Origin: Methylobacter sp.
GTDB lineage: Bacteria; Pseudomonadota; Gammaproteobacteria; Methylococcales; Methylomonadaceae
DNA: 15,387 nt
Reading direction: 5' to 3'
NCBI GenBank assembly: GCA_036561065.1
Contig: DATBQC010000966.1
Location: forward strand, 1 to 15,387
Position numbers and translations under genes: made by a program. The notes below the pieces were generated by a model. The model was given only the letters and a program-made list of their open reading frames with translations, was not told where the DNA came from and searched no databases. Position 1 is the first letter of the stretch, and every line of letters begins with the position of its first letter. Positions 11,906 to 13,669 of the stretch are shown in pieces.

Positions 11906-13669
11906 TTAGGATGGGTGATGGACGTCCATCACCCATCTTTTCTTCCCTAAATCCCATATTTTCTTATATCCTTCTAGTGTCCTTATTTCATTTTCTGTTC
12001 TAGTTTCACCTTTCGGCTTCCTAAGTGCTGATTTGTGCAGTCTCCTATCTCCAATAACCCAGTAATAATCTGGTTTGACATCTCCATCATATTTGAACCC
12101 CATTTTTTCATATACCCCACCGGCAAATAATCTATTGTCTGAAAATGTAACGATCTTTTTCGGTTCTACAGCTTTAACAAATATAAGCATCATTTTGCTC
12201 CATATACCGTGTATTCTGAATGATGGATCCGCTGCCATCCGAGATAATTCATAATCATAATTTGATTGTCTTGACGGTCGCGTAAATGATATGCAAGCCA
12301 TGAGTCTTCCAGCAATAAATGCACCATAATGATAAATTGCTGGACGTCCTCCAAGATAATGGAATTGGTCATAGAATTTTTTCGCTTCTACATGATTTAT
12401 TTCCTTAATTTCACATTTATTTATCCGATATGATTGAGGAGACAATAAGCGGAGGCGATTTCTAATTATAATTGATATTATGTTTTTCTTATCTCTCCAT
12501 TCGTCTTCAAAAATACACATCATAGGGATGTTATTTTGGATTGCTATTGCATATTTTTCCATGTCCCTCTTCTTTGATTCATCTTTCGAATGCCACCTAA
12601 TCCCATTTATTTCAATCAATAAATTGGCTGATGGTATATAGATATCAAAAAATCTACCGCCTATTTCATATTCCTGTATGACCTCCAATCCAAGCGACTT
12701 AATATAGTCGCTTATTTCTATAGATGGCCGTGATATGCGTTTTGATGTGCACCCACACGTGATACATCGTCCTCTTCTAACGTCACTGAATCTTGGCTTG
12801 TATTCTTTCTTGCATGCTGGACATATAGCACGGAATGGTTCAACTTTATTATTTATGACTTCGAGAAAAATAATACCTCCTTCTGGTATTTGAACTGGTT
12901 GAATTGGACATTTTAAAGTCTTTAGGAATGGTTCATAATTTTTGAACCATTCAAATGCTTTCTGATAACATTTTGAACATGAAATAACATCACCGCACGT
13001 TATACTTGAGATAGATATATCTCTGATGATGCCACATCTGCATTCCAACTTTATTTTTTTCTTGCTCCACGGAAAAATTGTTATTGTTGACTCTCCTGAA
13101 TAAGTGAAATTACCGAACTTATCTCCATGATTCAAAATAATCGTGGAGCATTGTTTACACCTTGCATTTATTGCTCGCCGATATGATGTGCTTATCGAAT
13201 GCCCTATATCACATTTGAATATGAAACGTTTGTTCGATCGGAGATATATTATTACATCTTGTCCATCATATGTGAGATTTTTTAATCTGGTTCCTGATTT
13301 CAGTATAATTGATTTGCAAGATCCGCATTTTTTGGCCCGGCCTCGCATTATCGTGAATATTCTGATTTGTTTCTTCCTCCCACAGGAACATAGGAATGGT
13401 AATTTCTTCTGAGATTCGCCCTGAACACTAACATCAGGGCCATCATATTCTAAACTACCAAATTTAGTACCTCTTTTTAAAATAAATGATGTACATTCTC
13501 CGCATGTCTTTGATTTTCCGAGAGATGCGCTGACAAGCCTAATGTTTTTGATGCGTCCACATTTACATTTTAAGGGTATTTTCTTTTGACTGTATTGTCC
13601 TATTTGAAGTGAAGGTCCTTCATAAAGAAATTCCCCTATCTTTTGGCCCGTCTTGATTTCTATCTTCAT
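11906..13669 (-). CDS. Multi-domain nuclease-like protein (587 aa). It has 4 tandem ~58-aa Cys4 zinc-ribbon modules plus a further CPxC...CxxCGC cluster, a Vsr/DUF559-like PD-(D/E)xK endonuclease core and a C-terminal GNAT-fold (possibly Mom-like) domain. It is a probable free-standing homing-endonuclease-like or selfish element.
   Basis: Zinc-ribbon repeats: 'GQKIGEFLYEGP..KCKCGRIKNIRLVSASLGKSKTCGECTSFIL' / 'GTKFGSLEYDGP..LCSCGRKKQIRIFTIMRGRAKKCGSCKSIIL' / 'GTRLKNLTYDGQ..KCDIGHSIS..RCKQCSTIIL' / 'GDKFGNFTYSGE..ECRCGIIRDISISSITCGDVISCSKC'. Nuclease core: 'GGRFFDIYIPSANLLIEINGIRWHSKDESKKRDMEKYAIAIQNNIPMMCIFEDEW' matches the DUF559/Vsr-like pattern RFDF..P...L.IE.DG..H......RD..R...L...G..V.R. 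GNAT motifs: 'LSRMAADPSFRIHGIWSKMML' (motif A, R-x-x-G-x-G/A-like) and 'TFSDNRLFAGGVYEKMGFKYDG' (motif B, N..A...YeK.GF). The gene spans an AT-rich block (about 35-38% GC) flanked by 48-58% GC genes. Confidence 0.8.
   Translation of the reverse strand: MKIEIKTGQKIGEFLYEGPSLQIGQYSQKKIPLKCKCGRIKNIRLVSASLGKSKTCGECTSFILKRGTKFGSLEYDGPDVSVQGESQKKLPFLCSCGRKKQIRIFTIMRGRAKKCGSCKSIILKSGTRLKNLTYDGQDVIIYLRSNKRFIFKCDIGHSISTSYRRAINARCKQCSTIILNHGDKFGNFTYSGESTITIFPWSKKKIKLECRCGIIRDISISSITCGDVISCSKCYQKAFEWFKNYEPFLKTLKCPIQPVQIPEGGIIFLEVINNKVEPFRAICPACKKEYKPRFSDVRRGRCITCGCTSKRISRPSIEISDYIKSLGLEVIQEYEIGGRFFDIYIPSANLLIEINGIRWHSKDESKKRDMEKYAIAIQNNIPMMCIFEDEWRDKKNIISIIIRNRLRLLSPQSYRINKCEIKEINHVEAKKFYDQFHYLGGRPAIYHYGAFIAGRLMACISFTRPSRQSNYDYELSRMAADPSFRIHGIWSKMMLIFVKAVEPKKIVTFSDNRLFAGGVYEKMGFKYDGDVKPDYYWVIGDRRLHKSALRKPKGETRTENEIRTLEGYKKIWDLGKKRWVMDVHHPS
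11910..11937 (+). terminator. 28-bp perfect palindrome GATGGGTGATGGAC|GTCCATCACCCATC followed by CTTTTCTTCC. A probable intrinsic terminator for the plus-strand operon. It is embedded in the last codons (WVMDVHHP) of the minus-strand gene.
   Basis: Read directly: the reverse complement of the first 14 nt equals the second 14 nt. A T-rich tract lies immediately 3' on the plus strand. It is located 38 nt after the stop of 10970..11872. Confidence 0.5.

Follow-up and report, generated by a model that had tools for sequence, protein, structure and literature searches.

A Hef-like gene coding for a nuclease fused to a Mom-like domain beside ruvC of an uncultured huge phage, probably a free-standing homing endonuclease

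The systems closest to the gene described here have been reported under two names. Two accounts that cite the primary work (PMC2988022, PMC3322345) place hef of phage U5 between nrdA and nrdB and report that its product, Hef, is a site-specific homing endonuclease which cuts near its own locus. Hef was placed in the Vsr-like EDxHD nuclease family by Taylor et al. (PMC3239194), whose paper discusses the nuclease domain alone. Iyer et al. (2021) described fusions of Mom with a restriction endonuclease (REase) in jumbo phages as 'momylating enzymes' with a restriction component, of which phage PA5oct has five; their reading is a restriction-modification-like one in which homing is never mentioned (PMC7824862). 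Since these two papers between them cover both halves of the architecture, the nuclease assignment and the Mom-REase fusion with its cut-and-protect reading are already in print, under two names; a literature search combining Mom with homing endonuclease returned no paper linking both. Two further systems serve for comparison, namely phage Mu Mom, which uses Gly-tRNA to modify adenine to N6-carbamoylmethyl-adenine (PMC13219725), and the T4 enzymes SegG, MobE and SegB, which cut a conserved neighbour gene of an endonuclease-less phage in co-infection and thereby co-convert flanking markers (PMC2988022). The subject of this report is a gene on the minus strand of a 15,387-nucleotide (nt) stretch of DNA (GenBank assembly GCA_036561065.1, contig DATBQC010000966.1), the whole of which is referred to below as the window. 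The gene resides in an uncultured huge phage; we have very little doubt that its product belongs to the Hef family, and we consider it probable that the gene functions as a free-standing homing endonuclease of the Hef type.

The gene and the parts of its product, in order from the N-terminus, are the following.

11906-13669, minus strand: complete gene of the Hef-like homing endonuclease type, 587 amino acids (aa), ATG start, TAA stop; PHROG 559 (E = 2e-77) and PHROG 3339 (E = 5e-62)
13490-13666, minus strand: repeat module 1, residues 2-60, pattern CxC...CxxC with C35, C37, C56 and C59, beta-rich in the AlphaFold2 model
13313-13489, minus strand: repeat module 2, residues 61-119, C94, C96, C115 and C118
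13145-13312, minus strand: repeat module 3, degenerate, residues 120-175, C153, I155 replacing the second Cys, C171 and C174
12965-13144, minus strand: repeat module 4, residues 176-235, C210, C212, C231 and C234
12734-12964, minus strand: long helix (233-251) and a fifth Cys4 knuckle, residues 236-312, C283, C286, C305 and C307, leading into the nuclease
12455-12733, minus strand: Vsr-like (EDxHD) nuclease, residues 313-405, with D342, E353, N355, H360, D369, K372 and E388-D389-E390
11924-12454, minus strand: Mom-like GNAT domain, residues 406-582, with H437/Y438, R477, G488, D511, R513 and Y520 conserved

The open reading frame is present just as a preliminary description of this DNA had given it, with its ATG and its 587 residues, and the two motifs quoted there, FRIHGIWSKMM and NRLFAGGVYEKMGFKYDG, are found at residues 484-494 and 512-529. 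An AlphaFold2 model based on 103 homologs has high confidence over its whole length, with a mean predicted local distance difference test score (pLDDT) of 93.7.

Family membership is indicated by several collections. The two PHROG families, the second of them named 'homing endonuclease', cover residues ~86-582. A tblastn search matched 402 GenBank phage records, the best of which is annotated 'Hef-like homing endonuclease'; more than 583 family loci are present in IMG/VR, and a large protein collection contains 102 relatives, the best of them 56% identical. Hef of U5 and the Hef-like proteins are homologous to the protein over ~300-580 at 25-31% identity and fall into the same PHROG families; the set includes Hef59 of Campylobacter phage NCTC12673, F-LimVIII of Dickeya phage LIMEstone, Acj133p179 of Acinetobacter phage 133 and members in Vibrio, Thermus and huge phages. 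The core of nuclease and GNAT domain (~300-580) recurs in T4-like, Dickeya, Acinetobacter, Vibrio, Thermus, Klebsiella, Lak and other huge phages. The member in the T4-like phage G8 has nrdA and nrdB as its neighbours on either side, just as published for hef of U5, and aligns over both domains (E = 6e-16); Acj133p179 sits between the head genes 23 and 24. Like the present gene, these genes are free-standing in intergenic slots between conserved genes, sometimes antisense, and many genomes carry several copies (9-11 in Campylobacter phages, nine places in the huge phage LR756500). The architecture had been called unusual in the preliminary description; a nuclease joined to a Mom-like domain turns out to be the standard build of this large, named family. 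Differences from the described members remain, namely an N-terminus made of four ~58-aa Cys-rich repeats, which the Campylobacter copies share in part where most other Hef-like proteins have DUF723, DUF7487 or other modules, and a host that belongs to an uncultured huge-phage clade absent from the GenBank phages. The Mom-REase fusions of PMC7824862 and the Hef-like proteins are almost certainly the same proteins, because PA5oct is credited with five momylating enzymes and the PA5oct-like phages Ettore and Paride have five matches that carry the annotation 'homing endonuclease'.

For the nuclease domain, a profile of close homologs matches I-Bth0305I (PDB entry 3R3P) with E = 1.1e-5, and the Pfam model REase_MTES_1575 matches the same region with E = 2e-5. 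Residues D342, N355, H360 and D369 align to D196, N208, H213 and D222 of I-Bth0305I, for which the roles of the catalytic residues have been described (PMC3239194), and D342, E353, H360, K372 and E388-D389-E390 are conserved in 96-100% of the 103 homologs. The predicted catalytic residues of the nuclease are thus all intact. The two enzymes have the same catalytic constellation and differ in their setting: I-Bth0305I is intron-encoded, carries NUMOD and helix-turn-helix DNA-binding motifs N-terminal to the nuclease and has no GNAT domain. The call of a Vsr-type nuclease, made earlier from the letters alone, is upheld by these profile searches, which keep the domain within the PD-(D/E)xK class. 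In PADLOC only a weak match of the protein to the model 'HEase' was obtained, with no defence-system match, and a search of NCBIfam gave no match.

The C-terminal domain has a GNAT fold, and its closest structural match in the PDB is phage Mu Mom (8BV8), which was the first Foldseek match at E = 1.6e-7 (next match 3.3e-6) over an alignment of 185 columns of the 222 residues of Mom. A search of PDB sequences with a profile of the domain (hmmsearch) did not reach Mom; structure comparison alone did. The Pfam model Mom (PF25680) scores 24.6 bits, under its gathering cut-off of 27.1, several homologs have precomputed matches to that model, and the PHROG family 'Mom-like' matches with E = 5.7e-10. 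These results agree with the GNAT assignment that had been proposed for this domain and are compatible with its Mom-like character. In Mu Mom, H58, Y59, R111, D149, R151 and Y159 have been found experimentally to be essential or important (PMC13219725), and in an hhalign alignment they correspond to H437, Y438, R477, D511, R513 and Y520 of the Hef-like protein. Among the 103 homologs H437 is conserved in 100, R477 in 99, D511 in 97, R513 in 97 and Y520 in 99; Y438 is a tyrosine in the close clade alone. The counterparts of H58/Y59, R111, D149, R151 and Y159 are therefore kept, and the Hef-like domain has an extra element between the last two core strands, modelled as an additional hairpin and helices at residues 534-572, before the last strand. 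Mom has its own HTH-like insertion between the last core strands, which its activity requires and of which this element may be the equivalent. The two proteins differ in that their identity is only ~16% and in that Mom is a stand-alone enzyme under Com control, whereas the Hef-like domain is fused to a nuclease. The essential catalytic S124 of Mom aligns, in a low-confidence part of the alignment, to His487, a column that is I, V or H across the family; the nearest serine, S491, occurs in 66 of the 103 homologs. We also note that the member in T4-like phage G8 has a glycine at the D149-equivalent position.

Because the domain is conserved family-wide together with most of the essential residues of Mom, it has probably kept the ability to bind DNA and to engage a flipped base; the conservation of the Arg, Asp and Arg of Mom argues for a retained base-engaging pocket. 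The lost serine, and the glycine in the T4-like member, argue against a uniform Mom-type reaction across the sequences compared. A separate observation concerns residues 488-492 (window ~12194-12208), where most GNAT domains of the family have a Gly-rich loop of the type GxGASK (G488 in 101 of the homologs, G489 in 50, A490 in 43, S491 in 66 and K492 in 89). The clade of the window has HGIWSK in place of this loop, and Mu Mom is without a Gly-rich loop. The loop resembles the pyrophosphate-binding loop of acyl-CoA-using GNATs, which suggests that the donor substrate may differ from that of Mom.

The N-terminal half of the protein consists of four repeats of ~58 aa which are mutually 25-42% identical and form beta-rich modules in the AlphaFold2 model (residues 2-235). 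They had been described as four tandem Cys4 modules; the number of repeats is correct, but module 3 is without its second cysteine, and a fifth Cys4 site of a different kind follows them, in which C305 is a cysteine in 93 of the 103 homologs and C307 in 87. No DNA-level similarity among repeats 1-4 was detected in a DNA repeat search, so the duplication must be old. A separate AlphaFold2 model of residues 1-310 found nothing in the PDB at E <= 1e-3 with Foldseek, and the label of zinc ribbon accordingly rests on the cysteine pattern. Profile similarity of the repeats to CSL zinc fingers is weak (E ~ 0.4). Homologs carry Pfam PF14311, a zinc-ribbon model. The number of N-terminal modules varies from two to five among close homologs, and distant homologs have other N-terminal domains.

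The genomic position of the gene can be compared across related phages. With the flanking genes as probes, ten related genomes were gathered for comparison, on contigs of up to 436 kb; the genomes other than the window are cited here by their locus numbers (L001 and so on). The elements that define the insertion slot are as follows.

10970-11872, plus strand: left flank g10970, a conserved gene of unknown function, 300 aa, converging on the Hef-like gene
13668-14408, plus strand: right flank ruvC, a RuvC-like resolvase gene starting at ATG; Pfam RuvC, E = 2.4e-6; PHROG 159
13667-13670, no strand: CATG, the overlapping divergent starts (Hef-like CAT on the plus strand, ruvC ATG), which mark the insertion point

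Homologs of g10970 with 46-53% identity adjoin ruvC in nine related contigs. The slot between the two genes is filled by a Hef-like gene in four of the ten genomes (the window, L001, L002/L011 and L009), is empty in four (L004, L005, L006 and L010, with a 50-95-bp spacer containing a strong hairpin) and holds other cargo in two (L007 and L008). As the same slot shows three states, the Hef-like gene is of an accessory, insertion type. In the flank-gene tree, genomes with and without the Hef-like gene in the slot are intermixed. The flanks of L009, which carries the Hef-like gene, and L007, which carries a sigma-factor gene instead, are 77-78% identical, and the closest RuvC pair (71%) joins L001, which is filled, to L004, which is empty. 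The contigs of L007 and L009 each have a further full-length paralog at another place (L018, L019), and a single Hef-like copy is present within the 15-kb window. The starts of the Hef-like gene and ruvC also overlap or abut in L001, L002/L011 and L009, and 4-7 codons separate the insertion point from G(I/L)DPS, the invariant motif in which the RuvC catalytic Asp is found. To judge from these alignments, the pattern is the one that a free-standing homing endonuclease with a conserved target should produce, and the gene is probably mobile. The earlier proposal of a selfish, free-standing endonuclease between conserved genes gains from the existence of both empty and filled versions of the slot, and the comparison with related replicons does not show a conserved core gene, the gene being absent from the site in six of the ten genomes. 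This insertion site was not seen in the annotated phage records examined.

The other cargo deserves a separate remark. In L007 it consists of an antisense gene for a 444-aa sigma-70-type factor with a 105-aa open reading frame (4210-5864), and in L008 of a gene for a 450-aa unknown protein with a 128-aa open reading frame (4055-5971). The slot between g10970 and ruvC is a hotspot for cargo.

A mechanism of spread can be outlined on the basis of these observations. During co-infection, the repeat array would bind a specific sequence in a Hef-less allele; the most likely place for it is the 5' end of ruvC, which is highly conserved, at 15-40 bp from where the gene is inserted. The EDxHD nuclease would then cut the Hef-less allele at the bound target, and recombinational repair of the cut genome would copy in the Hef-like gene along with the markers beside it; RecA and RuvABC genes of the phage itself adjoin the Hef-like gene. 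The Mom-like domain might either aid target recognition alone or chemically mark the carrier genome. Such a mode of spread would be shared with SegG, MobE and SegB of T4, whose catalytic folds (GIY-YIG, HNH) are unrelated and which lack an accessory domain with enzymatic function.

The stretch of ruvC next to the insertion point was considered as a candidate target.

13668-13727, plus strand: first 60 nt of ruvC, coding for MxxLG(I/L)DPS, the motif of the catalytic Asp; possibly a target of homing, a variant that confers immunity or a region of Hef control

Three of the four Hef-carrying genomes (the window, L001 and L009) are 77-80% identical in the DNA of this stretch, which exceeds the value for pairs with equal or higher aa identity. 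Within it L009 agrees with L001 over L007 at 14 sites against 4, compared with 60 against 149 in the rest of ruvC (Fisher p = 5.6e-5), and the corresponding comparison of L001 with L009 over L004 gives p = 8e-5; the limits of the 60-nt stretch were chosen post hoc. The stretch may represent a target immunity variant, a co-conversion tract of some age or a region constrained by the control sequences of the Hef-like gene. The upstream control sequences of the Hef-like gene must lie inside ruvC. A recent co-conversion tract carried along with the gene was also considered and was downgraded, the Hef-like genes of the same genomes being only 43-56% identical. We further note a 24-bp pseudo-palindrome, CCATCACTAAGATCTTATGGATGG, in ruvC codons 8-15 (13689-13712); it may be due to chance, because it is not palindromic in the other Hef-carrying genomes. 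It shares the 7-mer CCATCAC with a 28-bp palindrome at the other end of the Hef-like gene, described below.

The base composition of the gene bears on how long it has been in place. The Hef-like reading frame has a G+C (GC) content of 0.358 and a third-position value (GC3) of 0.30, compared with 0.517 for its left neighbour g10970 and 0.455 for ruvC on its right. The 1764-nt segment of lowest GC in the 15.4 kb is 11850-13613, which is nearly exactly the Hef-like frame, and the lowest value for such segments outside it is 0.392. The trough noted in the preliminary description is therefore real and its edges match the gene, but the right flank is at 0.45-0.49 and not within the 0.48-0.58 given there for the flanks. 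Positions 1-4400 of the window are also at only ~0.40, so the composition is heterogeneous gene by gene. The four syntenic copies compare with their genomes as follows.

L011: Hef-like gene GC 0.306, genome GC 0.385
L001: Hef-like gene GC 0.385, genome GC 0.441
Window: Hef-like gene GC 0.358, genome GC 0.449
L009: Hef-like gene GC 0.534, genome GC 0.56

The gene thus tracks the GC of each host genome with a deficit of 3-9 points. The syntenic copies are 43-56% identical at the aa level and are about as diverged as the neighbouring genes (46-65%). Both results indicate that the Hef-like gene is a long resident. Quite apart from this gene, GC varies strongly from gene to gene within the window and within the L002 and L011 genomes; it is high in the genes that are best conserved (ruvB 0.58, g10970 0.52 and the gene for a major-vault-protein (MVP)-like protein 0.51) and ~0.39-0.43 in the poorly conserved genes, and the overall GC of the related genomes ranges from 36% to 64%.

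Several other explanations of the gene have to be weighed against homing. The trough had suggested a recent foreign origin, in which a low-GC donor gene has just landed in a higher-GC genome; its coincidence with the reading frame and the antisense orientation of the gene would suit such an event. However, the syntenic copies have ameliorated in every genome (0.306-0.534 for the genes against 0.385-0.56 for the genomes) and are as diverged as the flanking genes, and a GC of ~0.40 is shared by further genes of the window that are weakly conserved. The host-tracking GC and the divergence of the copies already contradict a recent import, which we consider extremely unlikely. The low GC instead reflects a selfish gene that has long been resident, is weakly constrained and is biased towards AT; it is a property of the class and not the signature of a donor. 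Long retention at one site could also be expected of a domesticated nuclease of the recombination module that makes breaks or processes intermediates for recombination-dependent replication. The catalytic residues are intact, and in the window, L001 and L002 the gene sits among ruvB, ruvC, recA, the gene for an SbcC-like ATPase and ruvA. This account is nevertheless very unlikely: six of the ten genomes keep the whole recombination module and have no Hef-like gene at the site, the gene is antisense to the module, and the members in other phages lie between genes 23 and 24, between nrdA and nrdB or beside structural genes.

The published proposal for the jumbo-phage Mom-REase fusions (PMC7824862) corresponds to a cut-and-protect weapon, in which the Mom-like domain would acylate adenines of the phage's own DNA, the nuclease would degrade unmodified DNA of the host or of a superinfecting phage, and the gene would be kept for the benefit of the phage. 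This fits the conservation of the equivalents of Mom R111, D149, R151, H58 and Y159 in at least 94% of the 103 homologs, as well as the retention of a full-length gene at one site across genomes whose aa identity has fallen to ~45-60%; several copies in one genome might widen the specificity. It does not fit the absence of a conserved counterpart of the essential S124, nor the glycine at the D149-equivalent in the T4-like member that occupies the hef position. The prototype Hef, moreover, is the site-specific enzyme cutting near its own locus that is reported in the accounts cited above (PMC2988022, PMC3322345), and presence or absence at one slot combined with swapped N-terminal DNA-binding modules is a hallmark of homing endonucleases. 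Adenine modification linked to Hef was not found in a limited literature search, which is an absence of evidence and not a finding. On balance we regard the cut-and-protect weapon as unlikely.

Homing itself leaves a number of observations poorly accommodated, and these weigh against it. The homing target of the Hef-like protein is a candidate one, and the signal at the 5' end of ruvC depends on a 60-nt stretch that was picked after inspection of the data. The fourth Hef-carrying genome, L011, is without that pattern, and the divergence of the Hef-like genes is too great for them to have been transferred recently together with the 5' end of ruvC. The divergent starts of the Hef-like gene and ruvC leave no space for a promoter between them. 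The old copies with host-ameliorated GC fit long vertical residence followed by losses equally well, and a pure homing role does not explain the strict conservation of the Mom-type residues. A further reading has an active Mom-like domain that acylates adenine in or near the recognition sequence of the protein itself, making it a homing endonuclease with chemical self-immunity; we regard this variant as possible but doubtful. By analogy, the acyl donor could then be an aminoacyl-tRNA, as in Mu Mom, or acyl-CoA for the members with a GxGASK loop.

The sequences around the two ends of the Hef-like gene include the following elements.

11873-11891, no strand: small hairpin TTTGACT-tgttg-AGTCAAA, in the 33 nt that separate the stop of g10970 from that of the converging Hef-like gene
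11910-11937, no strand: perfect 28-bp palindrome GATGGGTGATGGAC/GTCCATCACCCATC, in the last, non-conserved Hef-like codons, followed by a T-run on the plus strand

Taken together, the palindrome and the small hairpin fold far better than shuffled sequences (z = -5.1), and in the empty sites a strong hairpin occurs at the place equivalent to the palindrome. From their sequence and position the two look like a terminator of the converging g10970. In none of the ten genomes is ruvC preceded by a Shine-Dalgarno-like sequence, and the divergent starts have no intergenic space for promoters; the expression signals of this huge-phage clade differ from the standard type. A scan for sigma-70 promoters gave fewer sites than in shuffled sequences and a terminator scan gave a number near the shuffle expectation. 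No tRNA or Rfam family was detected in the window.

The remainder of the window contains genes for a sigma factor, an MVP/SPFH-like protein, RuvB and RuvC and the start of recA.

8057-9031, 13668-14408 and 14455-15387: recombination genes of the window, in a neighbourhood also carried by L001 and L002

This neighbourhood as a whole brings together a near-complete recombination set of bacterial type, comprising ruvB, ruvC, recA, the gene for an SbcC-like AAA_23 ATPase and a gene for a protein with a RuvA_C domain. A megablast search of the GenBank phages with the whole window gave no match and a tblastn search of the same set with g10970 gave none; the host clade is known from metagenomes alone. 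The gene at 4499-7099 (plus strand) codes for an 866-aa protein with a major-vault-protein shoulder and repeat domains and an SPFH/Band-7 signal. Among GenBank phages it is related to proteins of 462-735-kb uncultured huge phages alone, with 42-43% identity, which is a distant link; a vault-like protein is unusual in a phage. The Hef-like gene had been described as the only sizeable one on the minus strand. It is indeed the only minus-strand frame of more than 200 aa in the window, but a 178-aa frame at 207-743 (minus strand), which has no long plus-strand frame opposite it, is possibly a second antisense gene; our searches gave no family match or other homology support for it.

As a find, the gene is a fairly ordinary one: the very large family of selfish phage nucleases gains one more member, at an insertion site that is new. 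It does expose a gap between two bodies of work, in that the papers on homing omit the C-terminal half of these proteins and the paper on momylating enzymes (PMC7824862) omits homing. The retention of the Arg, Asp and Arg of Mom in hundreds of Hef-like genes is a testable lead on protection of the carrier genome or on target recognition, and the filled, empty and replaced sites next to ruvC provide ready-made substrates for such tests. If chemical self-immunity were to prove true, these endonucleases would be able to target invariant active-site DNA, such as the GLDPS codons of ruvC, without the need for protective polymorphisms in the target.

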